56,897 nt of DNA from a virus (lineage: Duplodnaviria; Caudoviricetes), in IMG/VR virus record IMGVR_UViG_3300031673_000051, positions 1 to 56,897 of that record, one strand, 5' to 3'. The stretch's first letter is position 1; the number at the start of each line of letters is the position of its first letter. This document shows positions 35,446 to 56,897 of the stretch, piece after piece. The notes beneath the pieces are model-generated. The model was not told the origin of the DNA. It worked only from the letters and a program-made list of their open reading frames with translations, and ran no database searches. Made by a program: the position numbers and the translations under genes.

Positions 35446-35817
35446 CTAATCTACTAATCCAAATACATCCTGTGCTCCACAAAGAACAGTGTAGTACTTG
35501 TGTCCATCCAATCCAGTAATATTTAGACCCCAAGGAACAGAAATATCAAATAATACTCTAACTCCTGCACTTAACTTTGGGTGTGTAGGATGACATTTCC
35601 CTTTAAGATCTGTGTATCCCGGACCTATAGATAGTATAGTTCCCGTTCCATTGTGATACTTCTTTCGAATACTTTCAGGAAGAACTATTACATTATCCTG
35701 TCCCATCTTCTCAGGAGGAGAATCTGGACAAATGAAAACTAAATCTCCCAACATCTGATAGGGGAATTGAAGTTCACCCTTCTTATTGTGCCAGGGTGTT
35801 TTATACTCAATACTCAT
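35446..35817 (-). CDS. Divergent GroES-like co-chaperonin
   Basis: LGDLVFI, IVLPES, GTILSIGPG, GVRVLF, DVFG mirror the GroES fold. Confidence 0.75.
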   Translation of the reverse strand: MSIEYKTPWHNKKGELQFPYQMLGDLVFICPDSPPEKMGQDNVIVLPESIRKKYHNGTGTILSIGPGYTDLKGKCHPTHPKLSAGVRVLFDISVPWGLNITGLDGHKYYTVLCGAQDVFGLVD

Positions 35818-35826
35818 AACTCTCCT

Positions 35827-36090
35827 TTATCTCAAGTGTGACAAAGCCTCTGCTTTGGCAGCTACTATTGCTTTCTTCTTTTCAATGAAATAATTCCGGA
35901 TGCCTGATGCACAACACACAAAACCCATAAGTGCATACCCATACTTCTCGGCTTCTATTGAAACTATGGAAAAAGGAATATTAGCTAGGGCATAAAACAA
36001 CCACCATCTATAACTCCGACCAAGCATAAAAATGGCAGTGGTAAGCCAAATTGCTCCAACTATTTCTATTACACGTATAGTAGACATCAT
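35827..36090 (-). CDS. Small three-helix membrane protein (PnuC-like half transporter?)
   Basis: Three hydrophobic helices; W....AN...Y......G..NY pattern. Confidence 0.4.
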   Translation of the reverse strand: MMSTIRVIEIVGAIWLTTAIFMLGRSYRWWLFYALANIPFSIVSIEAEKYGYALMGFVCCASGIRNYFIEKKKAIVAAKAEALSHLR

Positions 36091-36464
36091 TCCTCCTCGT
36101 ATGTAGCCATATTACCCGTTGATTCTTGAACATCAACCCGGTAACAACTTGGTATTTGCATACATATCCATCTGGCTATTCTTTCAGCTGTTGGATTTAA
36201 ACCACCTTGATTTAATGGTGTTTTTGTTGCAGAATCCCAACCTACCCCTTCTATGTCATTCAAGTACTGATGATCCAATTGACCATGTACCACTCTCTTT
36301 ATCTCAGTAAAATCTACTACCATACCATTTTCATTGAGCTCTTCAGCTGAGCAATAGACCGTGATTAAAAGGGAATGGCCGTGATTCCTGTTACAAGCAC
36401 TTATATAGGGTAGATTGAGCTTGTGAGATACTGCCACTTCCAGTGTTTTCTTAACCTTAAACAT
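36087..36464 (-). CDS. queD: 6-carboxy-5,6,7,8-tetrahydropterin synthase
   Basis: SHKL...C...HGH, GMVVDF, LDHQYLND, NPTAERIA, VQES. Confidence 0.95.
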   Translation of the reverse strand: MFKVKKTLEVAVSHKLNLPYISACNRNHGHSLLITVYCSAEELNENGMVVDFTEIKRVVHGQLDHQYLNDIEGVGWDSATKTPLNQGGLNPTAERIARWICMQIPSCYRVDVQESTGNMATYEEE

Positions 36465-36557: not shown

Positions 36558-37133
36558 TCATTTCTCCACCTCGTATATTTCCGGAAATCCCCGATAAGCT
36601 TCACCAGCACCCATGCCAGCTCCCACCAAGAAGCCTTTGTCCAAATACCGCCATCCAATAATATCCGGCTCTAATGCACCTTGCTCAGCTCGTAGAAAAA
36701 CCTTATCTACTAAAACTGCAGTATACACTTCTAAAGGATCATACCCGGATATGATTTTCTTTGCCTCAGCAAGGGTGTTTCCCGTTTCTGCACAATCGTC
36801 CACAATGATAACATTTCTACCACAAATATCTTTTCTTGATAAATCCAGAGGTGTCATCAATTTTACTTCAGCCCGAGCCTTCATTTCTTCTCCATAAGAT
36901 TCAAGACCTATATGCCCGATTACTACGTCTGGTTGATGCCAAAGTGAACCAACCGGATTAAGTGTGTATAAAATTTGTAACAATTGGTATGCCGTGTAAG
37001 CTCCACCTTTCAACACAGCAATAATGGCCAAAGGATATCCTACCATATTTATCTCCCCTGCCATCTTCCTCAAGGCAGCATCTACACCTTCTTGATTCAA
37101 AATTTGATTAAGTTTAGTTGACATCACTCCCAT
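36558..37133 (-). CDS. hpt: Hypoxanthine-guanine phosphoribosyltransferase-like protein
   Basis: VLKGG, ESYG, VIIVDDCAETGNTL (PRPP loop), FLVG.GM....YRG.P.I. Confidence 0.8.
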   Translation of the reverse strand: MGVMSTKLNQILNQEGVDAALRKMAGEINMVGYPLAIIAVLKGGAYTAYQLLQILYTLNPVGSLWHQPDVVIGHIGLESYGEEMKARAEVKLMTPLDLSRKDICGRNVIIVDDCAETGNTLAEAKKIISGYDPLEVYTAVLVDKVFLRAEQGALEPDIIGWRYLDKGFLVGAGMGAGEAYRGFPEIYEVEK

Positions 37134-37788
37134 CTCCTAACTGTGGCGTAAACTCAATATTATCCACCAACTTCTCCAGAAGTTCAACACTACTCACACC
37201 TTCCAACTTTGTAACCATAAAAGCTGCGTCTGCTATTTCAACTAACCCCTCATCTTGACTTATTATAATGAATTGCATATTCATTGTCTTAGCCAAGTAT
37301 TGAGTCATTTCCCTCACAGCTTCTGCATTTTTCAATCCATGCAAATTTCTGAACGGCTCGTCAAAAATGAGTACAGGGCGTGTCCTCTCATACTGAATTG
37401 CCCATAAGATTATCCTAAGAGCAAAAGATACCACATCGGCTTGGCCACCACTAAACTCATCATCCTTTGGAGAAAATCTCTCACCATCAATAACAATATA
37501 CATATGAATTTCTGGTTGGTTGTGTGATATACTACCTTCTAATTCAAACGAATGATTATCCCCAAATACAAATTTAAGGGCCTGAGTAACCAAAACCTCG
37601 ACAACCTCCTCAAACTCCTGTTGAACCAAAATACCAACAGTATTCATCACCTCAAGAGCTTTTTCAAGGTCTGCAAGACAATTCTGATGAGATACAATCT
37701 CAATTCCCAGATCTTCAACCTTACTCTTAAGAAGTTTCTGAGTAGCCTTCTTCTCGCTTAAGAAATCAGTGTATTTTGTCAGATTCAT
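37114..37788 (-). CDS. Rad50/SbcC C-terminal half (coiled coil plus ABC signature)
   Basis: FSGGQ signature, LIFDEPF Walker B, QFIIISQ. Confidence 0.85.
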   Translation of the reverse strand: MNLTKYTDFLSEKKATQKLLKSKVEDLGIEIVSHQNCLADLEKALEVMNTVGILVQQEFEEVVEVLVTQALKFVFGDNHSFELEGSISHNQPEIHMYIVIDGERFSPKDDEFSGGQADVVSFALRIILWAIQYERTRPVLIFDEPFRNLHGLKNAEAVREMTQYLAKTMNMQFIIISQDEGLVEIADAAFMVTKLEGVSSVELLEKLVDNIEFTPQLGDGSDVN

Positions 37789-37801
37789 TATTTAACTTTC
37801 T

Positions 37802-38077
37802 TTACAAAGGTCCTACGACAAACATAGTTATCTTGAAACGTCCACGACCAGATTCTGAGTATTCTCTTAAAAAATGTTGATTACCATCTTCACCTGGCTG
37901 CATTGACCATCTGCCATAAATATGACTTGCTCGTCCTACTTCGTAATCATGATCTATTGCCCCAGCATCAAATAATATTTCAATTCCTTCTTCATGGCTC
38001 ACATGGCCTTTAATGTAGTAAGCATCTGGCGTGCCATACCAGTTCAGTGGCATGTATTCACCATCATTACATTTCAT
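37802..38077 (-). CDS. Hypothetical protein
   Basis: 91 aa ORF in operon. Confidence 0.55.
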   Translation of the reverse strand: MKCNDGEYMPLNWYGTPDAYYIKGHVSHEEGIEILFDAGAIDHDYEVGRASHIYGRWSMQPGEDGNQHFLREYSESGRGRFKITMFVVGPL

Positions 38078-38078
38078 C

Positions 38079-38255
38079 TTATTTCTCCTTATCCAACTTC
38101 TTTAAATTGGTCTCAAATTTTTCTAGAAATAGTTGAACATTTCCTTTGTTTGCAACTACCCTATGTGCTCTAGATTGTAGATGCTTCCGATGTTCCGGCC
38201 AGGTAGAAAAATCAATTCCACACACGCTACATCTGTATCTACTTACCTTTGCCAT
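38079..38255 (-). CDS. C2H2 zinc-finger protein (U1/matrin-type spacing)
   Basis: Probable start 38255; YRCSVCGIDFSTWPEHRKHLQSRAH = C-x2-C-x12-H-x5-H. Confidence 0.65.
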   Translation of the reverse strand: MAKVSRYRCSVCGIDFSTWPEHRKHLQSRAHRVVANKGNVQLFLEKFETNLKKLDKEK

Positions 38256-38446
38256 CTTAATCTTTATCCTTTGGTAGTAGTAAATAAACTCGAGTTCCAG
38301 GAGGTAACTCCCTCGGAGGAAACACCAGTGGTTGCTCCTCAGTAAAGGATACCTCATCATACACCTCTCCACGATAGGAGACCCAGTACTTCTTACCCAT
38401 TAAATCATCCTTCACAAGAATTGCATAACCCGCTATATCTGATAGC

Positions 38447-38731
38447 TTAATCTTTTTGTGGGGTGGCCGCTGAAATAATTGCAGACATCTCTTCATCCAA
38501 TTTTTTGAGCGTGCTTTCATGTATAATAAGCTCCAAACTTAATTCCTCAGATTTTTTCTCAGCGGCAGCAACAGAAGTCGTTCCCGACACATCCTTTAAT
38601 TGCTTGAGTAATTGTGTCTTTTGTCCATCCTGCTGTGCTTGCTCCCGACGCAGTTCTTCAATCTTCTTTACTTTTTGCTTAACCTCAGAAATGATATCAG
38701 CCATTTTTAACCTCCTCCAAAATTTCATCAA
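38447..38731 (-). CDS. Coiled-coil protein, possible middle segment of split Rad50 (likely start 38704)
   Basis: Heptad-like K/E/Q/L-rich sequence directly after sbcD. Confidence 0.55.
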   Translation of the reverse strand: MMKFWRRLKMADIISEVKQKVKKIEELRREQAQQDGQKTQLLKQLKDVSGTTSVAAAEKKSEELSLELIIHESTLKKLDEEMSAIISAATPQKD

Positions 38732-39635
38732 TAACCTGACGAACCCCCATACTTGCTTTCTTTTCCTCCAAAACTTTCAAAAGAAAACCTTTCCAACCGA
38801 GTATCTTCTCATCCCCTTCTTTTAATCGTTTCACAAGTTCAACAAGAAGAGAATTATCCTTCGTCCTAACATCTCTCTTAGTAAGATCGAATATCTTCTC
38901 AATTGGCTCTATACCAAGTTCAATAACTTCTGATTCATTTGTATCCGTATCAAATATAACAACTGCTGGTTGATGTTCCAAATCAAACCTTGAAATCGTC
39001 TTTCGAATTACCGCTCCGGGATTGATAATTATTCGCCCTTGCCAAGTTTCAATGAATCTATAGTGATAATCTCCTGCCAAAATGAGAGCATAGTCTGGAC
39101 ACTGCCGAAGAAATTGTCTCGGACCAGGCAACACCTGCCCTGGCCACAAAGCTCTATCCCCCACCATCCTATGAGTTACAAGAATATTGTAAGCATCTTT
39201 ATCTAGCACCTCAGGAACGGGCTCACCAAATGACGCTCCGTAAAAGAATACACTGGCTTGCTGGGGTCCTGCTATAACAGGATTATCACCCAGTATCTTA
39301 ACAACTCTTGCCGATTCCAATTCAACTAATGGGCTATTAGGTAAAGTAGCTTTTGAATGGCCTGAGATATCATGTTGGCCATAGACACAAAGCATCCGCT
39401 CATCCCCAAATCTCCCAAAGCAATGTAACAGTTGCATAACTTCTGACTTGACTTTATTTGCTACTGTGGGAGCATCAAAAAAATCACCCACTTGTATAAT
39501 GATATTACATTTCCTACCATCAAATATATCCAAACTTTGGGACACTTTCCTACATAGAGTCTTCCAGTAATCATCTATACGCCGCTCAGGCGATTTATTT
39601 GTTAAATGAAGATCTCCTATAATTCCTATTCTCAT
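38697..39635 (-). CDS. sbcD: Mre11/SbcD nuclease
   Basis: GDLH, GDFFD, GQHD, TH, GDYH, NPG motifs. Confidence 0.9.
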   Translation of the reverse strand: MRIGIIGDLHLTNKSPERRIDDYWKTLCRKVSQSLDIFDGRKCNIIIQVGDFFDAPTVANKVKSEVMQLLHCFGRFGDERMLCVYGQHDISGHSKATLPNSPLVELESARVVKILGDNPVIAGPQQASVFFYGASFGEPVPEVLDKDAYNILVTHRMVGDRALWPGQVLPGPRQFLRQCPDYALILAGDYHYRFIETWQGRIIINPGAVIRKTISRFDLEHQPAVVIFDTDTNESEVIELGIEPIEKIFDLTKRDVRTKDNSLLVELVKRLKEGDEKILGWKGFLLKVLEEKKASMGVRQVIDEILEEVKNG

Positions 39636-39771
39636 AGCCCTACTTTCCGTTTTCTAATTCAACAAAATTATCCATATGAATACAAATTCTTCCCCAGTTT
39701 TAAATGGATATTTATCCTCATATCCTTCGGGAAGATACGCTTTACACAAGGTCATATTTTCATTATCTTTC

Positions 39772-40881
39772 TTACTTCCCTAATAAAATTTGCTTTGATT
39801 CCGATGTAAGCCCTGTTCCACACATGGGACAATTCTCAAGTTTTTCTTTGAGCTCAATTTCCTCAAGTTCTAACTGTTTCAATCGAATATCGCTCTCAAC
39901 AAGCCCTACCTCAATTTTATGGATATCTTCAAGAAGATTAAGAACTGTTTCCAACTTGGTATCAATATAATTATACCTTTCTAAAGTACCTTCCACAGCA
40001 GTTATCACCTCAAGATTTTTTGGAAGAACTATTTCATGAGCTTTAATACTTTTTATCTTAACTATCAAAGGTTTAAGAGCATCTATGCACGTAGTTACCT
40101 TAGCAATATCCTCAGAAGATTGCCTCACATTATCAAATATCTGATCAATATTGTCTGGAATGTGTATCTGACACTTTTCGAGGACTCTTAGGGCATTGAC
40201 AATAGCATTTAACTGCTCTACCTCCGCCCTTAACCGCCTAACTTCTTCAATGTGAACCTTGGTCTCTTCAATTTTACTTTCAAGCAGGAGAAGGTTTATG
40301 GCGCCTAAGACAGCTAACTTCTGATTGGTGGCTTCAAGCTCTTTTTGCTTAGAAGCTACATCACCTTTCTCTATTCGAATCTTACTGGCCAATGACTTGG
40401 TGACCCGATCTATTTCATCCAATTTTGTTATAGATCTGATATATGTAGCAATCTGACCTGGTGGAGTATAAACAAGAAAATGCTGATCTCGCTGCTTTTG
40501 AACATTCAAATCTGATAGATTAATTACCTCAGAAATCATTTCGGGAGGACTATTTCCAAATCCTGTGAATGGATCCAGCCTATCCCCATTATGCTCCAGG
40601 GTATAACTATTCTCAGATGTGCCACGACTCCGAGTTATCTTATATACATCCTTATCCTCACTGACCACCATCTCTACAACACTAGTATCCTGACCTCTTC
40701 GTACATAATTACTGCCCAATGGACGATTGGTGGTAACCCAATTCAGACCCAACAATATATTCGTTTTTCCGTTACCAGAGTTACCCGTGAAAACGTTTAT
40801 TCCAGGAGATAACTCCAATTCAGTATCCTTATAAGTCTTAAAGTTATTTAAAATAATCTTTTCAATCATTTTTACACTCAA
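39772..40881 (-). CDS. sbcC: Rad50/SbcC N-terminal half ending at the zinc hook
   Basis: LNNFK, Walker A GNSGNGKT, Q-loop VQKQ.D, coiled coil, terminal CPMCG. Confidence 0.88.
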   Translation of the reverse strand: MSVKMIEKIILNNFKTYKDTELELSPGINVFTGNSGNGKTNILLGLNWVTTNRPLGSNYVRRGQDTSVVEMVVSEDKDVYKITRSRGTSENSYTLEHNGDRLDPFTGFGNSPPEMISEVINLSDLNVQKQRDQHFLVYTPPGQIATYIRSITKLDEIDRVTKSLASKIRIEKGDVASKQKELEATNQKLAVLGAINLLLLESKIEETKVHIEEVRRLRAEVEQLNAIVNALRVLEKCQIHIPDNIDQIFDNVRQSSEDIAKVTTCIDALKPLIVKIKSIKAHEIVLPKNLEVITAVEGTLERYNYIDTKLETVLNLLEDIHKIEVGLVESDIRLKQLELEEIELKEKLENCPMCGTGLTSESKQILLGK

Positions 40882-42387: not shown

Positions 42388-42711
42388 GCTTTGCCTCTTC
42401 TCTTCTTATTTAACTGAGAAATCTTTCGCCTAAACTCCTTTGGATTCGTCAAATAACTGTAGTCAGATGTTACACAGTCAAACTTGGGATCAATCTGAAC
42501 AGCGGGACAATAGTCACACATGAATCCGGAAGTTTCAGGCTTGTCATATTCATCCTTGGCAAACTGACAAAAGAAGCAATCATTCCACACCTCCTCAAAA
42601 CCATTCTCCGCCATCCAGTCTGCTTTATTTTCTAAAACACTACCAGGTAAATCAAATGTCGTTCCACATCTTTAAGCAGTATTCCCATACCTTATCCAAT
42701 GTCATACTCAT
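42384..42711 (-). CDS. Cys-rich hypothetical protein (apparent 1-bp insertion near 42654)
   Basis: CFFCQF, CDYCP; upstream MSMTLDKVWEYCLKMWNDI joins if one T is removed. Confidence 0.45.
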
Positions 42712-43499
42712 GTTATGCTCACCTTTTCCATCACTTCATAAGTAAGTCCATCTCTTAACTGTACTTCATCTTTTGTGACTGCTACAAATGTTGGGTATTC
42801 ATCATCAACCCAACTACCCGTGTTTGCATAGATTCTTTTAAAAGATACATGTGGCCATCTACCCTCAGGATTTATGGCAACAATCTCCTTAAGTTCAGCA
42901 TTATGGCTATGTCCCATAATAGTAATAGGTGCTAAATTTTGTTGTCTAAGGTTTTCTATCACAAAAATATGCTGATCTAAATCAGTTATATTGTATTTCT
43001 TATTCTGCAACAAAGCTGCTTTAACTTTAAAATCACCAAACTTATCGTACATTTTCTTAAGCCAGACATCAGAATCTGGATGAATAATTCTTTCCAACCC
43101 AGCCACCAACACAGTAATATATTTACCTATCGGCCATTTTAAACTAAGCAATGGATTCTCAAAATTATTGAAAGTATCAAACTGATGCCCGTGCACCGCC
43201 CATACACCATCCTTACTATATTGAGAAGGTGTGAGTTTAGAAAATGGAAGAGCATCATGATTGCCATGTACAAAATAGACCTTATCCCTTCTCTCATCTA
43301 ACGCCCGTATAACAGCAGCGTGTGCCCAGAAGATCTTCTCCAATTTTGACTGCCAGAGTTCATATAAATCTCCAACAATAACAATCTCGTGTGCTCGTTT
43401 ATCTGTCCACTCTAAGAATTTGATTAACTCTGCATCTCTGTGAAAGTCATCTGACTTAGAGCCGTCACCTAAATGTATATCGGATAAAAACACTCTCAT
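42708..43499 (-). CDS. Calcineurin-like metallophosphoesterase (LpxH-like)
   Basis: SDIHLG, GDLYELW, GNHD, HGH, GHSH, NTGSW. Confidence 0.88.
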   Translation of the reverse strand: MRVFLSDIHLGDGSKSDDFHRDAELIKFLEWTDKRAHEIVIVGDLYELWQSKLEKIFWAHAAVIRALDERRDKVYFVHGNHDALPFSKLTPSQYSKDGVWAVHGHQFDTFNNFENPLLSLKWPIGKYITVLVAGLERIIHPDSDVWLKKMYDKFGDFKVKAALLQNKKYNITDLDQHIFVIENLRQQNLAPITIMGHSHNAELKEIVAINPEGRWPHVSFKRIYANTGSWVDDEYPTFVAVTKDEVQLRDGLTYEVMEKVSIT

Positions 43500-47737: not shown

Positions 47738-48691
47738 TCACTCCTTCCAGGTTTCAAAACAGGCTCTTGCAATAAGAGCACCCATCAAACTTTTCTTACC
47801 ATAAAAAGTACTATTAGAAAAAATCTTCAACAGGTGTGTAACGTCTAACGCGTCCTCCACGTTATCATACTTCTTTAACTTATTATACAAAAACGTCATG
47901 AGGGAAAACCTAATTCTCTCAGAATCTTCATTAATAGCATCAAAAGTTGTAATAATCGTTTTCCATTTCTTTCTTCGAGCAGCAGGACCCATCGATATAA
48001 GATTAAACAAGTCAAAAATAGTTTTCTCCTGCTCTGTGCCATTTACTATAAGTTCAACAACATCATCCAAGTTAGTCATCTCAGCAACTTTTTCAAGTGC
48101 AACTAAAGCAGCCCTCGGAGATCCATCATTAGTTTGCACTAAAGCTTCTATAATACCCAATGTAATTATCCATCTTTTCTTTATGCAGGCCCGTGTAAGA
48201 ACTTCCCTTATCTCCTCTTTCTGTAACAAGCTAACTGTATACTCGGCACACCTATTACGAAGAGTTGGTATGAGACTTTCCGCATCCGTTGTACAAAAAA
48301 TGAAGTAACAATGAGGAGGATTATCCTCTATCACTTTCAATAAACATTCTTGTGCTTTGCCTGAGAATTCATGGCATTCGTCAAATATATAAACTTTAGC
48401 CCCACCTCCAAAACCTATCAAAGGAGCGTTTTCAGCAATACCTCTAACCGTACCAATTCCATTTGTATTAGCTGCATTTAATTCAAATATAGAATCAGAT
48501 AAAGCTCCGAATTCCCTGGACAAAATACGTCCAATGGTTGTCTTGCCACAACCCGTTGGCCCTTTCAAAAGAATAGCATGTGGCCGATGTTCCTTAGACT
48601 GTTTTAACATAGCCACTAAAGCCCCAACAACGGCTGAATTACCTACTATATCCTCGAAAGTTGTGGGCCTGATTTCCTGATAGAGCGACAT
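47738..48691 (-). CDS. dnaX: Clamp loader ATPase (DnaX gamma/tau-like)
   Basis: LY...RP.TFEDIVGN, GPTGCGKTT, ELNAA, DECH, LLK.IE.PP, FIFCTT, TLRNRC, GSPR. Confidence 0.88.
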   Translation of the reverse strand: MSLYQEIRPTTFEDIVGNSAVVGALVAMLKQSKEHRPHAILLKGPTGCGKTTIGRILSREFGALSDSIFELNAANTNGIGTVRGIAENAPLIGFGGGAKVYIFDECHEFSGKAQECLLKVIEDNPPHCYFIFCTTDAESLIPTLRNRCAEYTVSLLQKEEIREVLTRACIKKRWIITLGIIEALVQTNDGSPRAALVALEKVAEMTNLDDVVELIVNGTEQEKTIFDLFNLISMGPAARRKKWKTIITTFDAINEDSERIRFSLMTFLYNKLKKYDNVEDALDVTHLLKIFSNSTFYGKKSLMGALIARACFETWKE

Positions 48692-48745: not shown

Positions 48746-51307
48746 TTACATGCCTGACATTTCATACCAATTCTTAGCTCCGTACTCCCAAGAAACACTC
48801 ATCGGAACATCTCCCTGCCAATCAAACATTTTTGAGCACAGAATTTTTTCACCCAACTCAATGACATCTTCCATCTCATCAAGATGAGTATCCAAAATAA
48901 TAGCATCATGAATTTCTGCAACTGACAAAGTTCTAAACTCCCGACGGACTAATTCTGCATCAATTCTATTACCACCAGCTTGTAACAAATGGTACGCTGG
49001 CCCTTGTATTGGAGTATTATACAACTTATTTATATTAAGTGGTCCTGGACGTCTTGCTCCTGTGACCAATTCAACATAACCATTTTTCTGATAATCATGA
49101 ATAGTTTTGAGTTGCCATTCTTTAATATAAGAATATTCATCCCAAAATCTGGCCTGTACCGAAGCTATATACTCCGGATCAAGACCCATTGAGCGGGCTA
49201 TGGAGGCGGGTATTGCTCCATAAATACTGGGGAAAAAGAATCCATTCTTTGATTTATTTCTTATTGCCTTTTGCTCTACTGATTCAGTGTAAACCTCCCC
49301 CTCCCGGCCATAAGCTCTACTCGCCCACATCCAATGTACATTATAACCATCTTGAATCTGTTTTGTGAGTATGGGATCTTTTGAAATCATCGCAGCAACA
49401 CAAATCTCTGCACCAGAAAAATCCGGTTCAAGAAATATGTGTCCCGGCCTTGGAACAATACACCTTCTAAACGTTTTCTGCCGTAAATTATGCTTAAAAA
49501 CATTCTGAATGTTCGGACCGTCACAAGCAGACCGATAAGACCTTGTTATATTAAGACTGTAAGATGGGTGAGCTTTCCAACTGGGATCAACAAGTCGACG
49601 GTACTCCGCAGCTCTTTCCAAAACTTTTAAGCCACTACGGTAAGTGGTGACATTTGTTAAAATCTTCTTAACCTGGAGATCATCTGTCGTACTAAGTATT
49701 TCTGCGAACACATTCTTATCAGTACAGGGTTTCTTACCCGCAGTCATACGCTTTGATGTAAGGGGAACACCACAAATCTCATAGAGCACCTTACCAATGT
49801 GTGCGGGTTTACCTATATCAAATGCTACTCCTTTAGGATCATTTTTGATACTCTCATTATATTTAATAACAGCTGGAGTACCCTTAATGGCCTTCACACA
49901 ATCCTCTATCTCAGTCGTAAAATCATCTTCAACAGCTTTCAAAGCAGTTTCATCTATTTGAATACCATTATATTTATAATTAGCCAATGTGCGGAGGCAT
50001 TGGATGAAAAAATCATTAAACTTCTTTAAATTCCCATCCAACATGGCTTCTTGCTTATAGTAAGCCATTAAAGTATACCGGGAATCCCAACAGTTATAAT
50101 CACACACCTTTTCAAGGGGTTGGTCAAATATCTTAGTGACGTCAACCATCTTCTTGTACACATGCCCCGTCATTTCAAAAACCTGGTAGGCCAATCCGGT
50201 TGTCCTGGCACTACAATTAATCACATGAGCAGTTACCATGGTATCATGTATAAAGTTCGTCATTGACTGTCCAAACTTGTTGCGCCCCCACAATTCCTCC
50301 ATATAATAATTCTGACAGATCTTAGGTGTACTACTTTTCAAAAAATGTTTCCACGCAGCAGATATCCTAACCTGTTCTCCTGAACTAAAAATGCCCTCAA
50401 AACCAAGAGGAATGAAATCCGCATACTCGATGCTATCAGTAAACGATATAGAAGCCACCTGGGCATCCCGTTGAAAAGAATCAAGCATATTAGCTTCATA
50501 ATCAAAGGATACAGGCTTATCATGATCACAATACCCCTCTATAGCAGCAATTGCATCATCAACATTAGTTAAGCACCTATTACCTTCTGCAGTCAATGGT
50601 TGAGGAAGAGGCTCACCAAGATAACTTATTACATTAGCCAAATCATATGCAAGAATCACCTCATCATCGGGAACATCAGCCCTACCCTTTCTCTCCAAAA
50701 AGAAAGCAGGTCGATGTGCACAGCCAACCCAGCAATTTCGTTCGTGGTACGGAAAAATCTTACCATGTAGCAGACCTTCATCTGGTAATTTGCTAAAAGC
50801 CTTGGATTTCAAAACAGCTTGGATCGCAATTGTTCCAAGACAAATAATCAATTCCGGCTGTACTTCTTGTATATCTTTTTCAAGATTTGTAAGACAACAG
50901 TTAATTTGATCCTTCGTTGGAGCCTTATCCCGTCCCCGAGAATCTCTTCCAGGAAAACACCGAACAACATTGGTTCTCGTGCAATCCACATCCAAATCAA
51001 TACCCGAGTAGCCACAGAATTTAGTGAGGAGCCTACCTGCACCCCCTGAAAAATTTCGACCTGCTCTGTCATCCACACCTGAGGGGCTTTGACCAACAAT
51101 CAAGATTCGCTTTCTTCCTTCTCCAAATCTTTTCAATTTGGGATGTCTACACTTATCACAGAGACCACAGGTACTGCAGTCATAAATTTTTGCTGGACGA
51201 GCAGCTTTCTTAACACCGGAGCCCCCGCGTTTTCGCGTGAACCTCTCAGGGTGCTCCTGTTGAAATAACTCCCAACTGTCCATAAAAAATGCAGGTTGTT
51301 TTGACAT
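48746..51307 (-). CDS. polA: Family A DNA polymerase with N-terminal family-4 UDG-like domain and 3'-5' exonuclease (SPO1-like architecture)
   Basis: CxxC.LC...ILIVGQSP...F.G.AG..TNVVRC; exo FDYE, YNCWD; polymerase PNIQN, DFSGAE, K...F..IYG, NTPIQG, IHDA. Confidence 0.92.
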   Translation of the reverse strand: MSKQPAFFMDSWELFQQEHPERFTRKRGGSGVKKAARPAKIYDCSTCGLCDKCRHPKLKRFGEGRKRILIVGQSPSGVDDRAGRNFSGGAGRLLTKFCGYSGIDLDVDCTRTNVVRCFPGRDSRGRDKAPTKDQINCCLTNLEKDIQEVQPELIICLGTIAIQAVLKSKAFSKLPDEGLLHGKIFPYHERNCWVGCAHRPAFFLERKGRADVPDDEVILAYDLANVISYLGEPLPQPLTAEGNRCLTNVDDAIAAIEGYCDHDKPVSFDYEANMLDSFQRDAQVASISFTDSIEYADFIPLGFEGIFSSGEQVRISAAWKHFLKSSTPKICQNYYMEELWGRNKFGQSMTNFIHDTMVTAHVINCSARTTGLAYQVFEMTGHVYKKMVDVTKIFDQPLEKVCDYNCWDSRYTLMAYYKQEAMLDGNLKKFNDFFIQCLRTLANYKYNGIQIDETALKAVEDDFTTEIEDCVKAIKGTPAVIKYNESIKNDPKGVAFDIGKPAHIGKVLYEICGVPLTSKRMTAGKKPCTDKNVFAEILSTTDDLQVKKILTNVTTYRSGLKVLERAAEYRRLVDPSWKAHPSYSLNITRSYRSACDGPNIQNVFKHNLRQKTFRRCIVPRPGHIFLEPDFSGAEICVAAMISKDPILTKQIQDGYNVHWMWASRAYGREGEVYTESVEQKAIRNKSKNGFFFPSIYGAIPASIARSMGLDPEYIASVQARFWDEYSYIKEWQLKTIHDYQKNGYVELVTGARRPGPLNINKLYNTPIQGPAYHLLQAGGNRIDAELVRREFRTLSVAEIHDAIILDTHLDEMEDVIELGEKILCSKMFDWQGDVPMSVSWEYGAKNWYEMSGM

Positions 51308-51310
51308 CTT

Positions 51311-51541
51311 TTACCTACCTCGTAATGCTTCTTGACAACAAATATCGTCTAATTGATTGAGCTCTTCCATCGTTGCCTCGGCAATGGCCTCTTCATAAAG
51401 ATAATATACATCTGACCTATTAGAACCTGTGCGTAACCTTAACTGATGTCCAGATTCGATTCTATCAAGAACTTTATTGACCCAACAAGACTGATTACAA
51501 TCAAGTAAGTCAACCCAAGAATCTCTATCACAACGAGTCAT
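51311..51541 (-). CDS. Hypothetical protein
   Basis: 76 aa ORF. Confidence 0.45.
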   Translation of the reverse strand: MTRCDRDSWVDLLDCNQSCWVNKVLDRIESGHQLRLRTGSNRSDVYYLYEEAIAEATMEELNQLDDICCQEALRGR

Positions 51542-51616
51542 CTGGCCAAGCCATCGGTTCCACCGAGTCCTATACTTCTCAAGATTAGATTTAGACTTTT
51601 CATCTACAACACCTTT

Positions 51617-51835
51617 CTAGTAATATAATGAGGTTACTCGATGCTTATCCTCTTTGGAACCTTTAAGGTACCAATCAGTAGTCATTGAAATGGCTTTTCT
51701 ACCGAGAACCTCACCTTTAATCTTAAAGATGGCCCCACCAGCACTAATGAATTTCTTATCCTCTTCCTCAGTTAAAGGTTCAGACAATACCTGATGAGAA
51801 ACACCCTGCACGTATAAAAAGTTAATTCCATCCAT
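51617..51835 (-). CDS. Hypothetical protein
   Basis: 72 aa ORF directly after the clamp gene. Confidence 0.5.
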   Translation of the reverse strand: MDGINFLYVQGVSHQVLSEPLTEEEDKKFISAGGAIFKIKGEVLGRKAISMTTDWYLKGSKEDKHRVTSLYY

Positions 51836-52897
51836 TTAATCTGCACCTCCTGTCCGCATTAGATACTGTAACTTTTCTGCTTCAAACAAAATCAAACCAT
51901 CAGCATAAAACTTGAAACTTGAACACTTACTTGCTATCTCTCTCAAAAAAGTGGGATTGACTGAAAAGGCTAACTTCAAATCCTCCCTTACCTTAACATC
52001 TATCTGCTCAACAAGATTAGCTTTCTCCGGCACCTTAGAAGTAAGAGTACAAACTCCTCCTTCAATTTCAATTAACATTATCCGATCAAGCGGATTTATA
52101 TCTCCAAGTAAAGTTGAGTGCCGTTCAATAATTGAAGTTAATTTATCACCAAACTCGATCTGTTCATACGTATTGGAACTAGAAAAATATTGTAAAAGTT
52201 CCGGGTATTTTCCTGGAATTAGGCAGGTAGTAATGCACATACCATCCTCCAGGATAGCCATAAGAATATTATCACCAACTGCGGATAAAGAAACAATATC
52301 ACGTTGATACCTCTTTAACAAGTCAATAAACTTAACTGGTATTGTACAGGTAATACCTGAATCCTCTTTTAACTCCCATTTTGTAACTCGGTATCTATCT
52401 GTACTAAAAATTGTATCCTTGTTAAGCTGAACACCACAGTATGGTCCTGCCACAATATCCTTGGAAACTCCAAAGCGGCAAAAACCAAGTGCCTCCACCA
52501 CATCAGACAACAGAAGTGGATCTATACTCACCCGCTCTTCATTATCTGCAAAGGGTGTGGATTGAAACGTAGGCGGAGTTATCACAAAAAACTTTCCCAC
52601 AATCTTATTAGTCTTTATCTTAAGTTCATTCTCTTTAACTTGCAAATCAACTTCTTCTGCACTAAGAGAGATTAAAAGATCAAGAACTTCTTTAGATATT
52701 GAACAGCATAAACCAGTATCAATTGAACAAATTAAATCCGCCAAAATAATTCCATTAGTAGCCTGGATATGATTCCCCTCAATTTGAAAATACTGAAGCT
52801 CAGGCATAAGGGGATTACTTCCAAGCATTGGCGCCATCTTTTCAAGAATCGCCACAAATGTACTTCTATTAATTTTCATCAATAACTCCTCAATCAA
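51836..52897 (-). CDS. dnaN: DNA polymerase III beta-type sliding clamp
   Basis: ~350 aa; MKINR, IQATNG, STDRYR, GKYP, FSVNP.FL, YLM motifs of the three-domain clamp. Confidence 0.85.
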   Translation of the reverse strand: MIEELLMKINRSTFVAILEKMAPMLGSNPLMPELQYFQIEGNHIQATNGIILADLICSIDTGLCCSISKEVLDLLISLSAEEVDLQVKENELKIKTNKIVGKFFVITPPTFQSTPFADNEERVSIDPLLLSDVVEALGFCRFGVSKDIVAGPYCGVQLNKDTIFSTDRYRVTKWELKEDSGITCTIPVKFIDLLKRYQRDIVSLSAVGDNILMAILEDGMCITTCLIPGKYPELLQYFSSSNTYEQIEFGDKLTSIIERHSTLLGDINPLDRIMLIEIEGGVCTLTSKVPEKANLVEQIDVKVREDLKLAFSVNPTFLREIASKCSSFKFYADGLILFEAEKLQYLMRTGGAD

Positions 52898-52902
52898 ATT
52901 TA

Positions 52903-53844
52903 TTAAAATACTGGGGGCTGAATATTCTTATTTAATTTTGGTGGTATGTGCATCAATTCTTCATCCTGTAGTCGGGCATAAAACAAAGTATTCGCCTTCA
53001 ATCTTTCAGCCTGTTCTGTCTTAAGTTTTTCAGAATCAACACCTATCGTCCTAAAATATTCTTCTATCCTTTCAACTATCACAGCAGGATAAGTAATACT
53101 GTAGTGTGAATGCACAGTATCCGTCTTAGCTAGGGAAACATCAGATGCAGATACCACATATGGTGTACACATAAAGTTGTACTTCTTTGTTCTTACATCA
53201 AACTTAGGAACCATAATCCTTCCAAAGCCAGCCTGCTTCAACCAAGTAGTTGAATCAACACTATAGAATGGATACCTTACCATGAATTGGAATCCAGTAA
53301 CTCCGAAACCATGAACCCTGGTACCCAAATTTTTCTGCTCAATATAATCAAAAACTCTATCAAACAAATTCCTGAGACTTCTTACGGGTATTCCACGAGC
53401 AATACCACCAACACCAATGTACTCATATTCGTTAACATACCTCTCTGCCCACTTAAAATCCTCACCATAATGGTACACTGGAACAGGACGAACCCCCCTA
53501 CTCTCCATGTACTTTTGATTCACCCAACCTGCTTCGACATCTCCAATAGCATCAAGATTTGCATAGGCATATAACCTGTGATTCCATTTCAGAATGTAAT
53601 CAATGTAGTCATCCAAATATTTTTGAGTATCCTTAACTTGTACATTCTCCAAAGTAAACGACCCCGAATCCAAGAAAATCTTCACCTCTGGAAGCTCCTC
53701 TAATATCTGGGTTACTTCAGTATGAGCAAAAAATGATTCCAAAGCAAGAATCTTACCCTGACGACCCATTTCTATAAGTTCATCTGTATGCTGTCGCTTG
53801 GATGCAGTAAGGAATCTGGCTAAATATATTCTATTGAAAGACAT
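52903..53844 (-). CDS. dpdA: TGT-fold transglycosylase, DpdA-like (7-deazaguanine insertion into DNA)
   Basis: IFLDSGSFT, YANLDAIGD, PVYHYGE, IGVGG, VHGFG, YSVDSTTW; queD present in the same genome; the DNA substrate is inferred. Confidence 0.7.
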   Translation of the reverse strand: MSFNRIYLARFLTASKRQHTDELIEMGRQGKILALESFFAHTEVTQILEELPEVKIFLDSGSFTLENVQVKDTQKYLDDYIDYILKWNHRLYAYANLDAIGDVEAGWVNQKYMESRGVRPVPVYHYGEDFKWAERYVNEYEYIGVGGIARGIPVRSLRNLFDRVFDYIEQKNLGTRVHGFGVTGFQFMVRYPFYSVDSTTWLKQAGFGRIMVPKFDVRTKKYNFMCTPYVVSASDVSLAKTDTVHSHYSITYPAVIVERIEEYFRTIGVDSEKLKTEQAERLKANTLFYARLQDEELMHIPPKLNKNIQPPVF

Positions 53845-53853
53845 ACTACTCCC

Positions 53854-54078
53854 CTATTTTCGTTCTTCTGGAGCTCCACAATAAATGCAGTTATCCTTGG
53901 CCCGATCTAGTTTATTAAATACACAACAACCAACTGGAGACTTTTGACAAGTCCAACTACCTAATGAATGATATTGACCTACATCCTCTCCAAGATATCT
54001 ATCGAGAATGGTTGATATCTCCTCACGCAGAGTCTGCTGCTCTTATAAAATTTCCTTAATTCTATCTGGATCAGTCAT
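53854..54078 (-). CDS. Small Cys-rich protein interrupted by an in-frame TAA at ~54044
   Basis: MTDPDRIKEIL*EQQTLRE...WTCQKSPVGCCVF...DNCIYCGAPEERK. Confidence 0.5.
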
Positions 54079-54101
54079 TTCAATTTACTCCATCTTAAAT
54101 A

Positions 54102-54167
54102 AAAGCAAAGCTCAGGACAGGAATGGTGTTCCCTGAGTGTACACATCATCATGTGGTTCTTTGCTTT
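54102..54167 (-). ncRNA. Candidate three-way-junction RNA or branched terminator
   Basis: AAAGCAAAG/CTTTGCTTT closing stem, CACAT/ATGTG and CTCAGG/CCTGAG arms, followed by a T-rich tract. Confidence 0.5.
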
Positions 54168-54470
54168 CTATTCAGTGTAACCTCTGGCTCTATCCTCAAC
54201 GTTATCCGGCTCGAAGAAGTATGAATTATAGTTATCAGTTATGATATCCCTATCCTTAAATACTTGCCGCATATCTTTCCACCCTATAGATTGACCAGAT
54301 TCTGCATCTTCAGCTTCAATAAACACGTCAAGTTCTTTGATATACATGCTGTCAGACCCGCCCTCGCCTCCATTATCTGTCCAGAAGCAAATGACTTCAC
54401 CTAATCCACACATATTAAAACGACTTGAACACATTCCATATTCAGAATGCTCTTTCTCTCTAACTTTCAT
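54168..54470 (-). CDS. Hypothetical protein
   Basis: 100 aa ORF; SSRFN..GLGEV, I.DNYN..FFEP motifs. Confidence 0.6.
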   Translation of the reverse strand: MKVREKEHSEYGMCSSRFNMCGLGEVICFWTDNGGEGGSDSMYIKELDVFIEAEDAESGQSIGWKDMRQVFKDRDIITDNYNSYFFEPDNVEDRARGYTE

Positions 54471-55521
54471 CTAACTCTCCCATATACTCCACACATCTTT
54501 TAATCGTAGACTCATACTGCTTTATATCAATGTAGAAAGGATTGAATTTTAATTCCATCAAACGAGTCAGTTTATCCACAAGATCATCCTCACTCGAATA
54601 CAGCAACCGTTCATCACCTACCACTTCTGGATAAGCAAACTGGTTAGGACACAAAGGAATACTATGCAAAACATAAGCTTCTAACTGCCCAATTCCGAAC
54701 GTTTCTTCAGTTTTCAACGAAAGAATTACTTTCGCTTTATTTAAAAGTTTGTAATACTCTTTTCTACTACTGGCCTGAAGAACAGAAACGTCAGTAAACT
54801 TCTGCTTTATTGTATCTATAAGACGAGAGTTACTTTGTTCCAATCTCCCACTAATAAGTATTCCTTTTTTCTCCTCAAAGGGTATGGGTTTGGCATAGGC
54901 TACAACATCCTCTTGATAGAAAGGAAAACCAACCACTACCAAATTATTGAATTTCCTTCCAAAGTAATCCTCAATCTTTTTCGTATGATAGTACGTAGCC
55001 ACAAAAACCTTATCATAGGTGTCAAATATCATCCTATCTATCCATGGCCTACCCTTTGTCCTACTCCAAACATCCCCGTCACACCAGCAACCCGCGTGTA
55101 GGTATCCGCAGGCTTTCAACTTTGGATTCGTCAGTCTCAAAAGCTGGATCGCGGGTGTCATCAATCCTGGAAACTCAACATCTAAACAGAGTATCTTATC
55201 CGGTTTAATTACAGTTAACGCCTGTATTTGTGCACATTCATACTCCAAAGCCTTATAAGGATCAGTGAAATATTTAGTTACCTTGGCAAGAGGAAAGTAG
55301 GGATTATGAGGATCTACCATTTGAAAAGATACATCCAACTTTCTCAACTCACGCCTCCACACTTGGATCCAATCAGCCGTGTATCTATTTTCACAAGGTA
55401 ATTGAGGTAGTACTGTAATCATATTAATCATCCTCAGTGAAACATCTGTCCGTAATTCTTGGTGTAATTCCTGAGCCGTTATCCTCACACGAACAACTTT
55501 CTCTTTTCCATACAAATTCAT
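54460..55521 (-). CDS. GT-B (GT4-like) glycosyltransferase; probable start 55431
   Basis: RYT..W, HAG, FVAT.YH, VVGFP, SRKEYY.LL..AKV..S...EETFG...LEA, P.CPN...YPE. Confidence 0.85.
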   Translation of the reverse strand: MNLYGKEKVVRVRITAQELHQELRTDVSLRMINMITVLPQLPCENRYTADWIQVWRRELRKLDVSFQMVDPHNPYFPLAKVTKYFTDPYKALEYECAQIQALTVIKPDKILCLDVEFPGLMTPAIQLLRLTNPKLKACGYLHAGCWCDGDVWSRTKGRPWIDRMIFDTYDKVFVATYYHTKKIEDYFGRKFNNLVVVGFPFYQEDVVAYAKPIPFEEKKGILISGRLEQSNSRLIDTIKQKFTDVSVLQASSRKEYYKLLNKAKVILSLKTEETFGIGQLEAYVLHSIPLCPNQFAYPEVVGDERLLYSSEDDLVDKLTRLMELKFNPFYIDIKQYESTIKRCVEYMGELDES

Positions 55522-55644
55522 CTCGTGCGGACTATTGTATAAAATGCTCTACACATATTCTTAGTATACCCAAGATTAACCGTTCGAAATACATTTCCGG
55601 TTTTAACCACCCAACAAATTCTAGAAGCCATTATATTCTCCAAT

Positions 55645-56136
55645 CTATACAAAATCCAAAACTATACCTTCAAACAAGAAATATTTCCAATCACTTTCCC
55701 ACAAGGATTTTTGGTCCGGGTAAAACTTGTTAAGTGCAGCTCTCTTTTCTTCCTTATCCTTCTCACTCAACTCTCTGATAAAACTTGCTTCCATACTCAC
55801 GGAATAGTATCCCAACCCACATCCACTTAATCGTGCAATACTATTAACCGCCTTGTGCAGAGGATGATGGTCAGTTACATCAGGTACCAAACAGGTAAAC
55901 CTCTGAGCTCTAGCCAACTCCAAATATTTGTATAACCCCTCAAACTCCAATTGATCTACAGAAAATCCTAACTCATAACCTGCCTTCTTGGCCAATTCGT
56001 AACGTTCTGGAGTTGCATCAAGATATACCACCCAATCAATCAAACCTTTTTTGATTAAGGAGTAACAGCCGATCAAACAATCATCCGGATGGGGAGCAAT
56101 AATAATATTCATATTGTGTACCCTATTCCTTCCCAA
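55645..56136 (-). CDS. PIG-L/LmbE-family deacetylase; probable start 56112
   Basis: IIAPHPDD..IGC, HHPLHKAV, EKR..L...YPDQ. Confidence 0.8.
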   Translation of the reverse strand: MGRNRVHNMNIIIAPHPDDCLIGCYSLIKKGLIDWVVYLDATPERYELAKKAGYELGFSVDQLEFEGLYKYLELARAQRFTCLVPDVTDHHPLHKAVNSIARLSGCGLGYYSVSMEASFIRELSEKDKEEKRAALNKFYPDQKSLWESDWKYFLFEGIVLDFV

Positions 56137-56514
56137 CTACACATTAGTAGCAAAGTTCAGTAACGCGTACAGTTCTATACGATTGGGTGTAGCATTCATG
56201 AAATCCCCGGCCAAACTCGAAATAGTGCACTTATCTGCCTGCATAATGACGGCAACTCCTTCCGTTTTCGGGTAATGTGTAATAAGAACTTCTGACAGTA
56301 TTCCCGCCACATCTCTCATTCCCTGAATGGAATTTGGCAACTCCTTACTATTAAAATACCCATTTACCACATCATCTAAATCATCCAAATTATCATCCGT
56401 AATTAATGCGACAAATGTGAGTATAGGAAGACTGTACCTTCGCATAATTAAAGGCGAATACTCTTTCCCAACTAACTTGGTATTGGGCACTGCTTTTGTT
56501 TTTTCTTTACTCAT
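56137..56514 (-). CDS. Hypothetical protein
   Basis: 125 aa ORF abutting the deacetylase gene. Confidence 0.55.
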   Translation of the reverse strand: MSKEKTKAVPNTKLVGKEYSPLIMRRYSLPILTFVALITDDNLDDLDDVVNGYFNSKELPNSIQGMRDVAGILSEVLITHYPKTEGVAVIMQADKCTISSLAGDFMNATPNRIELYALLNFATNV

Positions 56515-56535
56515 GTAAAACTACTCGCTTTCTAA

Positions 56536-56874
56536 TTATATCTTGTCTCTATGTCTGATTAAAAATTCTTCTTCAGTTTCCGGATGAAAATGGAAAAGCT
56601 CAATGGCAACTTGAGAATGTAAATAGAATGCCATTGCCCGAACAGATGAATCGGGATGATGGTAGGCCAATACCGCAAAGCTATCAGCAAGATGATGAAC
56701 ATAATGCACCGGGCAGTACTCTAATTCGTCCAATGCTTTATCTATCAACGTACTACCCATATCAATTGTTTTCATGTAACTTTGCTTGGTTGGATCAGCA
56801 TCTATTTGACACTTAGATCGAAGCCAACGAGTACATTTCTTGACATTCTGAGTATACTGGTCTGGTGCTCGCAA
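56536..56874 (-). CDS. Hypothetical protein (start may lie further upstream)
   Basis: P.HYVHHL....VLAYHHPD motif. Confidence 0.55.
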   Translation of the reverse strand: MRAPDQYTQNVKKCTRWLRSKCQIDADPTKQSYMKTIDMGSTLIDKALDELEYCPVHYVHHLADSFAVLAYHHPDSSVRAMAFYLHSQVAIELFHFHPETEEEFLIRHRDKI

Positions 56875-56897
56875 ACCACTTAAAAGAATAGACTGCA

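Follow-up and report, generated by a model that had tools for sequence, protein, structure and literature searches.

A viral gene cassette predicted to build a glycosylated 7-deazaguanine for insertion into DNA

The virus record IMGVR_UViG_3300031673_000051 (Duplodnaviria; Caudoviricetes) encodes, beside its sliding clamp and DNA polymerase, a cassette in which DpdA, a DNA guanine/7-deazaguanine transglycosylase, is preceded by genes for a tunnelling-fold (T-fold) protein, a PIG-L/LmbE-like metal hydrolase and a GT4-type glycosyltransferase (GT). The folds or families of these four proteins are recognisable, and their genes are linked very strongly and repeatedly. We favour, at a little better than an even chance, a reading in which the module adds an N-acetylhexosamine to a 7-deazaguanine derived from preQ0 (7-cyano-7-deazaguanine) and de-N-acetylates it, probably as the free base, and in which DpdA inserts the product into DNA. 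We infer the sugar donor, the acceptor atom, the succession of steps and the final structure.

In the proposed pathway FolE, QueD, QueE and QueC would make preQ0, with QueD encoded in the window and the other three in close relatives. The T-fold protein, the GT and the short PIG-L/LmbE-like hydrolase would then tailor the base, most relatives adding a second radical S-adenosylmethionine (SAM) enzyme and a short-chain dehydrogenase/reductase (SDR). The GT would attach an N-acetylhexosamine, most likely from UDP-N-acetylglucosamine (UDP-GlcNAc), the PIG-L-like enzyme would take off the acetyl group, and DpdA would swap guanine in the phage DNA for the modified base. A preliminary description of this DNA had proposed hypermodification of this kind. 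The functional tie of the GT and PIG-L genes to 7-deazaguanine modification has held up, because both are found, in dozens of independent viral contigs, with QueC on one side and DpdA on the other; the amino-sugar-bearing base itself is still a prediction.

Gene order and conservation of the cassette

The window analysed here is the entire linear record of viral DNA, 56,897 bases long and estimated to be ~37% complete. Every plausible gene is on the minus strand, and the GC skew is negative throughout. From the contig end inwards, the intact, co-oriented open reading frames (ORFs) encode a 112-amino-acid protein with no assigned function (56536–56874), the T-fold protein (125 amino acids, 56137–56514), the PIG-L/LmbE-like hydrolase, a putative de-N-acetylase (163-amino-acid ORF, 55645–56136), the GT, of the retaining GT-B type (353-amino-acid ORF, 54460–55521), an acidic protein of 100 amino acids (54168–54470) and DpdA (313 amino acids, 52903–53844). 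Directly downstream, and on the same strand, are a beta-type sliding clamp (353 amino acids, 51836–52897; phrog_947, E = 2e-32, with weak matches to Pfam DNA_pol3_beta_2 and _3), two small ORFs of 72 and 76 amino acids from the ORF list (51617–51835 and 51311–51541) and a family A polymerase (PolA) fused to a uracil-DNA glycosylase (UDG) domain (853 amino acids, 48746–51307; Pfam DNA_pol_A, E = 4e-40; UDG, E = 2.5e-19; 3'-5' exonuclease). This is the arrangement that had been described before, with PIG-L, GT and transglycosylase-fold genes co-oriented and running into the clamp and polymerase genes. The range given at that time also contains two genes left unnamed there, the conserved T-fold gene and the non-conserved 100-amino-acid ORF, so that the best-conserved member of the module had been left out.

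A queD gene elsewhere in the window had likewise been noted, and is found on the minus strand at 36087–36464 (Pfam PTPS, E = 1.2e-23). QueD (6-carboxy-tetrahydropterin synthase) catalyses an early step of 7-deazaguanine synthesis. The motif CNRNHGH in this protein matches the canonical CxxxHGH, which identifies it as QueD and not as a DpdL variant under the motif definitions given in excerpts of PMC10516641. Since the record covers ~37% of the genome and the cluster sits at its end, the upstream part of the cassette is cut off.

The extent of the cassette was assessed through scans seeded with alignments, which were needed because single-protein scans of viral contigs with the GT and with the PIG-L-like protein returned no relatives. 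The T-fold alignment as seed yielded 55 viral loci plus 3 from genome bins (n = 58), which were annotated with custom profiles and a reference-protein panel and which dereplicate at ~90% to 40 lineages; the GT alignment as seed yielded 11 viral loci and 14 metagenomic ones (n = 25). PIG-L and GT genes directly follow the T-fold gene in 49 of the 58 loci (31 of 40 lineages), and in 38 of the 58 (24 of 40 lineages) they are accompanied by a recognisable DpdA. QueC is present in 51 of 58 loci and a second radical-SAM gene in 37 of 58. The usual order is QueD-QueE-FolE-(SDR)-radical SAM-(methyltransferase)-QueC-T-fold-PIG-L-GT-DpdA-(clamp)-PolA. At least one other cassette gene is found in 24 of the 25 GT-seeded loci, the sole miss being a 1.2-kb contig. 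The grouping of PIG-L, GT and DpdA is not a product of chance, and the gene-neighbourhood survey that the preliminary description had proposed bears out the linkage.

Two relatives (L005 and L024), which are 55–79% identical to the window per protein, carry QueC, an SDR and a second radical SAM gene upstream of the T-fold gene, and L005 carries QueE as well. QueC, the SDR and the second radical SAM enzyme very probably represent the part lost at the end of our record. Against NCBIfam, the radical SAM and SDR proteins have only generic matches, MoaA/SPASM-like and FabG-like respectively. The spacing between GT and DpdA is variable: other inserts, or none, occupy this position in relatives, with the genes abutting in L005 and lying 500–900 bases apart in L017, L018 and L024. 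In the window the spacer (53845–54470) comprises the 100-amino-acid ORF and 323 non-coding bases. This ORF has no Pfam or PHROG match and no homologue in any fetched locus, and lies outside the conserved module.

The GT family also occurs in cultured phages. Among 50,697 GenBank phage records it is found in 18, the PIG-L family in 3 and the T-fold family in none. In each of the four representatives examined, the jumbo phages BUDD/X1, BCSR5, PhiXhv-15 and PA5oct, the GT lies inside a deazaguanine gene cluster. Xanthomonas phage BUDD has the series FolE, a PAPS-reductase-like protein, a PIG-L-like protein, a 143-amino-acid protein, the GT, a 437-amino-acid protein labelled 'TGT', a DpdL-like protein and QueE, and Burkholderia phage BCSR5 is arranged in the same way. 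PA5oct has a 540-amino-acid protein with motifs like those of tRNA-guanine transglycosylase (TGT; ADSGGFQ and IHFLGLG), then the GT and a DpdL-like protein and, further on, a phosphoribosyltransferase and QueE. Xanthomonas phage PhiXhv-15 has a 'GlmS' with a QueC domain (Gat-QueC-like), then PIG-L, the GT and an oxidoreductase of the GFO/IDH/MocA type. All four genomes have QueD, and a QueC domain is found only in PhiXhv-15, in a protein annotated as L-glutamine-D-fructose-6-phosphate aminotransferase (L004:5600-7123; QueC domain, E = 5.5e-51), which is more likely a Gat-QueC-type enzyme. BUDD, BCSR5 and PA5oct have in common a small ORF with the motif LxxPHRHLFxF (L001:11481-11852, L002:7042-7410 and L003:9195-9572). 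According to excerpts of Cui et al. (PMC10516641), this motif is the signature of DpdL, a proposed decarboxylase of 7-carboxy-7-deazaguanine (CDG). Against small ORFs of these three phages the T-fold profile shows no relation (hhalign, probability ~1%).

BLASTP of the window DpdA detected no similarity to the TGT-like proteins of PA5oct and BUDD or to the ORF after the PhiXhv-15 GT, which is the GFO/IDH/MocA oxidoreductase. The GT family thus also travels with non-homologous DpdA-like enzymes, which strengthens its tie to deazaguanine. The paper on the X1 genome is silent on all of these cassette genes. For PA5oct, excerpts of 10.1101/2025.03.31.646159 report that the DNA resists five restriction enzymes, from which its authors infer a modified G of undefined nature, pointing to the QueE and PTPS genes.

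This pattern bears on whether the GT and PIG-L might be mere neighbours of DpdA whose target has nothing to do with deazaguanine, for example a host envelope glycan, a virion protein or, in DNA, a hydroxymethyl-pyrimidine. GT4 acceptors are very diverse, and one clade of UDG-fused PolA belongs to phages with glycosylated thymidine, but UDG fusions occur in several clades (both from excerpts of PMC13697223) and the PolA of the window has 853 amino acids. There is no homologue of thymidylate synthase (ThyA) in the window, which is an incomplete record. Dozens of lineages repeat the placement between QueC and DpdA, also with unrelated DpdA types, and nearly all GT-seeded loci retain another cassette gene. 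We therefore regard an unrelated target as very improbable. Thymidine hypermodification in particular was rejected as the leading explanation, as this partial record has no ThyA and the UDG-PolA fusion is not specific to T-modified phages.

Predicted activities of the cassette proteins

The product of 52903–53844 matches phrog_887 (E = 2.5e-52, residues 26–295) and clearly falls, by sequence, within the phage DpdA group. tblastn finds it in 247 of the 50,697 phage records, including Vid5, BcepGomr and EC151, with identities of ~30–35% among the matches listed. Residues D59-S60-G61, D98, H178 and D197-S198 are invariant in 10 DpdA orthologues; D59-S60-G61, D98 and D197-S198 we take to be the catalytic acidic residues of TGT-type enzymes. 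DpdA co-occurs with the 7-deazaguanine synthesis genes, QueD in the window and QueE, QueC and FolE in relatives with the same module.

Relatives in GenBank are annotated as queuine tRNA-ribosyltransferase, and glycosylated queuosine is reported from animal tRNA, so that the cassette might make a glycosylated queuosine-like base for tRNA. The protein nevertheless falls in the phage DpdA group with no Pfam TGT match at E ≤ 0.1, its relatives include phages reported to have deazaguanines in DNA (MED16 and 9g, for example), and its gene sits in a replication module. We consider a tRNA target extremely improbable.

A short hydrophobic C-terminal tail is present in all 10 aligned DpdA orthologues (QPPVF in the window, and KLFF, GALFE, NMLF, KSFF, RAFF, QVFLEE, GIFV, AGFFI and KGFSL), and a pattern of this kind ends only 2 of the 103 ORFs of the window. 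Clamp and PolA genes regularly follow DpdA. The tail would fit a clamp-interaction peptide, and we hypothesize that it tethers DpdA to the clamp. A complex prediction for the clamp and DpdA residues 250–313, run without controls, scored 0.06 against a mark of 0.32, a result that weighs neither way on clamp binding.

The GT matches phrog_4356 (E = 6.7e-7), and the only Pfam families seen in it are Glycos_transf_1 (PF00534) and Glyco_trans_1_4. PF00534 is precomputed on an identical database protein (P0001) and on 14 of 29 other GT homologues, and the BUDD homologue scores 45.7 bits; the identical GT is encoded on a 121-kb contig. The true start is probably M34 at 55422, giving 320 amino acids, because homologues begin near residue 34. 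An AlphaFold2 model built from a 26-sequence alignment (pLDDT 91.2) has a complete GT-B fold with two Rossmann domains. By structure alignment its best matches are Staphylococcus aureus BshA (6n1x; Z = 22.6, root-mean-square deviation (rmsd) 3.6, 298 aligned residues) and sucrose-phosphate synthase (Z = 22.6), followed by GlgM, LmbT (Z = 21.1), PimA and the tetrahydrobiopterin glucosyltransferase 5zer (Z = 20.5), with the T4 alpha-glucosyltransferase (alpha-GT) lower (1y6f; Z = 16.9). Foldseek ranks GlgM, MshA and BshA at the top, with E values of 3e-11 to 4e-10 for MshA and GlgM (MshA, 4e-10). GT4 enzymes carry an EX7E motif in the C-terminal domain, which EETFGIGQLE fits; E240, T241 and G243 hardly vary across the 26 aligned sequences, in which the second acid can be E or D. 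BshA and MshA use UDP-GlcNAc and are partnered with LmbE deacetylases in their own pathways. The likeness to these two enzymes, together with the adjacent PIG-L-like gene, makes UDP-GlcNAc the most likely donor and agrees with the GT/PIG-L pairing that the preliminary description had compared with MshA/MshB and BshA/BshB.

The PIG-L-like protein probably starts at M9 (56112), giving 155 amino acids; an identical 155-amino-acid protein (P0076) exists in the database. A five-sequence profile finds the diacetylchitobiose deacetylases 3wl4 and 3we7 in the PDB at E ~5e-4 (best 4.6e-4) with both metal motifs aligned, and H16-P-D18-D19 and H91-P-L-H94 (HPDD and HPxH) are invariant in the alignment. 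These motifs preserve the LmbE signature as given in excerpts of PMC4101496, an HXDD + H metal motif with His-Asp-His ligands and an Asp general base. PF02585 is precomputed on one homologue (P0102), JGI labels another as 'LmbE family N-acetylglucosaminyl deacetylase', and the PIG-L protein beside the GT of PhiXhv-15 scores 31.2 bits to PF02585, above the cut-off. According to the same source, every characterised member of the LmbE superfamily hydrolyses an amide borne by a GlcNAc/GlcN core. From this family rule and the paired GT4 enzyme, we infer that the substrate has such a core.

The T-fold protein has no match in Pfam, PHROGs or NCBIfam. tblastn against the 50,697 phage records gave no match and the ESM Atlas no usable one. 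Its AlphaFold2 model (pLDDT 89) aligns (VIA-align) with the T-fold domain of FolE (GTP cyclohydrolase I; 4uqf, Z = 11.2, rmsd 2.8, 99 aligned residues), with QueF-L (5jyx, Z = 8.8) and with QueF (4f8b, Z = 8.7); Foldseek against the PDB has nothing at E ≤ 0.001, the best match being human GTP cyclohydrolase I at 1.1e-3. With homologues it is 74% (L005), 55% (L006), 51% (L007) and 43% (L010-15) identical, and 98 representatives of the family are found among 1.84 billion proteins. Of the tailoring trio it is conserved best, and it belongs to a small unnamed family. Like QueF and QueF-L it follows QueC, to which it is sometimes fused, and this position and these fusions point to preQ0 or ADG (7-amido-7-deazaguanine) as its substrate, as in those enzymes. 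It has the fold of QueF/QueF-L and FolE but not their sequence family: the family of 98 is closed, the FolE zinc-ligand pattern is not seen among its invariant residues, and its single conserved Cys, a possible counterpart of the catalytic Cys with which QueF forms the thioimide, is absent from the window copy.

Family members are also fused to nucleoside-2-deoxyribosyltransferase/SLOG-like domains. In distant jumbo-type contigs with no PIG-L, GT or DpdA nearby, the T-fold gene lies beside a MazZ-like dGTP/dATP diphosphohydrolase, a dCMP deaminase and ribonucleotide reductase. The fusions and these neighbourhoods together come from proteins P0155, P0177, P0194, P0165 and P0172, from L066:7572-8393 and from L073 and L081. 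Such diphosphohydrolase neighbourhoods may point to a deazaguanine route at the nucleotide level, and the deoxyribosyltransferase-like fusions beside dGTP diphosphohydrolases hint that some jumbo phages feed bases in at that level, before replication.

Taken together, the predicted activities allow a more specific version of the pathway that applies mycothiol-type logic to a nucleobase. The GT would make a GlcNAc glycoside, the PIG-L-like enzyme would free its 2-amino group, the amine would be coupled to the deazaguanine, and DpdA on the clamp would insert the product. Coupling might fall to the T-fold protein, by QueF-L-like chemistry on the preQ0 nitrile to an N-glycosaminyl amidine, or to the adjacent QueC-type PP-loop enzyme, by way of a CDG-adenylate to an amide. 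With its tail on the sliding clamp at the fork, DpdA would place the bulky base in newly made DNA. We rate this version, with either coupling and with insertion at the fork, as unlikely though credible.

Free base or DNA as the site of the proposed sugar transfer

The sugar chemistry could take place on the free base or on DNA after insertion, and the free base is somewhat the more likely. It is favoured because the GT is nearer to small-molecule GT4 enzymes (Z = 20.5–22.6) than to T4 alpha-GT, because the T-fold protein, PIG-L and GT are acidic to neutral (isoelectric points 5.0, 5.7 and 6.5), because proteins exist in which the T-fold is fused to QueC, and because one locus (L027), with no DpdA close to it, pairs T-fold, PIG-L and GT with a Vut_1 transporter. 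Work on preQ1 conjugates fits a tolerance of TGT-family enzymes for large 7-substituents. The abstract of PMC10103133 is likewise consistent with such tolerance.

The alternative is that DpdA inserts preQ0, preQ1 or a related base and that the sugar is added on the DNA, the GT flipping the base out as the T4 glucosyltransferases do for 5-hydroxymethylcytosine and PIG-L then deacetylating it in place. The GT-B fold is common to T4 alpha-GT, QTMAN is reported to glycosylate queuosine within tRNA, DpdA adjoins the clamp and polymerase genes, and excerpts of PMC10516641 have its authors proposing that DpdM acts on DNA, which speaks against tailoring of the free base. The higher scores of the small-molecule neighbours and the acidic to neutral character of the three tailoring proteins tell against this order of events, as do the QueC–T-fold fusions and the transporter-linked locus, which point to free-base chemistry, and the gene order, in which the tailoring genes precede DpdA. 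We view glycosylation on DNA as a serious candidate, but an unlikely one.

The locus with the transporter is an integrase-bearing element (L027:7013-13347) with T-fold, PIG-L, a second GT4, radical SAM and GT genes, followed by genes for the transporter (PF02592, E = 6.5e-35), an ERCC4 nuclease and the integrase. Vut_1 is presumably the YhhQ family of preQ0/preQ1 importers. No DpdA was detected near this locus by profiles. A complete 277-kb record (G003) has QueC, QueE, T-fold, PIG-L and GT, and is likewise a case of the trio with no detectable DpdA. Such loci would fit a scheme in which the enzymes do act on 7-deazaguanine but the sugar is absent from the final DNA, serving as a transient handle or carrier or forming a free huimycin-like glycoside aimed at the host, and in which plain preQ0, or a simple derivative of it, is what DpdA inserts. 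The small-molecule GT4 neighbours of the GT fit it as well, and in huimycin-type clusters preQ0-derived bases are glycosylated without DpdA (excerpts of 10.64898/2026.04.15.718813). On the other side, DpdA comes directly after the trio, co-oriented with it, in 38 of 49 trio loci, and the DNA of PA5oct-type phages behaves as G-modified, with the modification undefined (excerpts of 10.1101/2025.03.31.646159). We know of no phage use for a free deazapurine glycoside. A role for the sugar outside DNA seems to us fairly improbable.

Several observations weigh against the favoured reading, in which a HexNAc-derived sugar is built onto the base before insertion. Some concern the assignments of the individual proteins. 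The GT itself scores 25.7 bits to PF00534 against a curated cut-off of 26.4. The PIG-L-like protein reaches only 16.1 bits to PF02585 (E = 0.016; cut-off 28.2), over residues 12–30, which hold the N-terminal motif. It is a short form of ~155 amino acids, with 75 residues between the second and third ligands as against 97–148 in characterised LmbE proteins, which combine a Rossmann-like fold with a C-terminal subdomain (excerpts of PMC4101496), and could for this reason cleave another amide, such as a 7-carboxamide or a formamide. In the T-fold protein, residue 111 is Asn, at a position that is Cys in 99 of 102 family members; the Asn is shared with a 95% identical twin (P0031).

Others concern gene content. 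The window, which represents ~37% of the genome, has no QueC, QueE or FolE of its own. By profiles, 9 of the 58 T-fold loci have no PIG-L, and 8 of those also no GT; these are mostly the distant jumbo-type contigs. DpdA was not detected by profiles in 5 GT-seeded loci with enough flank, and the complete G003 has neither a phrog_887-type DpdA nor FolE. BUDD, BCSR5 and PA5oct have a DpdL-like gene and no QueC. Cassettes that share the GT therefore differ in the 7-substituent they could make, so that a single common acceptor on this substituent is not obvious and the acceptor atom cannot be deduced.

Neighbouring genes and known systems

Beyond the cassette, the ORF next to the polymerase (317 amino acids, 47738–48691, minus strand) may encode a clamp-loader ATPase, to judge by its look. 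QueD is adjoined by a phosphoribosyltransferase (36558–37133; Pfam, E = 1.2e-16), which in PA5oct stands beside QueE, and for which a role with deazaguanine nucleotides is conceivable. A co-chaperonin resembling GroES lies near QueD at 35446–35817 (Cpn10, 21.9 bits, barely above the cut-off). A Rad50/SbcC-like ATPase is seemingly split into an N-terminal part at 39772–40881 and a C-terminal part at 37114–37788, with an Mre11-like phosphoesterase between the two halves (37114–40881) and a second one further on (42708–43499). In L005 an N6/N4 DNA methyltransferase lies between DpdA and the clamp (L005:7710-8399) and another after PolA; neither is found at the matching place in the window. The 112-amino-acid ORF at the contig end has no homologue in the fetched loci and no Pfam or PHROG match, and is not conserved in relatives. 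Megablast of 52000–56897 against phages returned no match. A scan of 51500–56897 gave 10 promoter-like sites (15.5 expected) and 6 terminator-like sites (3.1 expected), counts not clearly above those of shuffled sequence.

The system is best classed as DpdA-type deazaguanine modification of DNA, and the tailoring set would be its new part. Known phage systems combine FolE/QueD/QueE/QueC and DpdA1–4 with the tailoring proteins QueF, Gat-QueC, DpdL, DpdM and DpdN (excerpts of Hutinet 2019, PMC6884629, and Cui 2023, PMC10516641). As here, they place preQ0 genes and DpdA in a region of replication and nucleotide metabolism, with extra tailoring genes between the pathway and DpdA. What differs is the tailoring set itself, here a new T-fold family, a PIG-L-like hydrolase and a GT4 enzyme, usually joined by an SDR and a second radical SAM enzyme; the enzymes for the eight derivatives described in the excerpts of PMC10516641 include none of these. 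Those derivatives, presented there along with DpdL, DpdM and DpdN, include no sugar, and 'glycosyl' occurs seven times in Cui 2023, as part of 'transglycosylase' in every passage shown. A full-text literature search, whose scope excluded most subscription journals and supplements, found no description of a sugar-bearing deazaguanine base or gene set, in keeping with the earlier remark that an amino-sugar deazaguanine was not known from DNA. Supplementary Data S1 of PMC10516641, to judge from the excerpts, lists phages with their neighbouring genes and may already include some of these.

Outside DNA modification, tunicamycin biosynthesis likewise works around a nucleoside with a radical SAM enzyme, an SDR, a GT and a deacetylase of the PIG-L type. 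The closest enzymatic parallels to the GT/PIG-L pair are MshA/MshB and BshA/BshB, which also join a retaining GT4 enzyme of GT-B fold to an LmbE-type hydrolase; BshA is a joint best structural match, and the HxDD...H motif is common to both. The phage hydrolase differs in its length of ~155 amino acids and its shorter spacer, and the phage genes stand in a viral nucleobase pathway with no Cys ligase. In the huimycin/dapiramicin pathways HuiG transfers GlcNAc from UDP-GlcNAc onto a preQ0-derived 7-deazapurine, but these are secondary-metabolite clusters of actinomycetes, defined by the absence of dpdA and yielding a free product, and we liken them by function, not by homology to HuiG (excerpts of 10.64898/2026.04.15.718813). 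QTMAN and QTGAL are reported to place a sugar on a 7-deazaguanine derivative within a nucleic acid, although the target is RNA and the sugar is attached to the cyclopentenediol group of queuosine; the Pfam families seen in the window GT are only those named above. Glucosylation of 5-hydroxymethylcytosine in T4 also uses a GT-B enzyme to decorate a base of phage DNA against restriction, but the acceptor is a pyrimidine, not a deazapurine, and no deacetylase, T-fold partner or DpdA is involved.

If the prediction is right, DNA would gain its first reported glycosylated purine-type base, and the phage deazaguanine series a ninth, much bulkier member. The base would explain the G-linked restriction resistance of some phages, including PA5oct-like ones, may lie behind phage DNA that is hard to sequence, and would present modification-dependent defences with a new class of target. 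A permissive DpdA together with a base-specific GT would be usable for site-directed decoration of DNA. As cultured phages also harbour relatives, the prediction is already open to test. With 40 lineages in our sample, the cassette is widespread in uncultured viruses.

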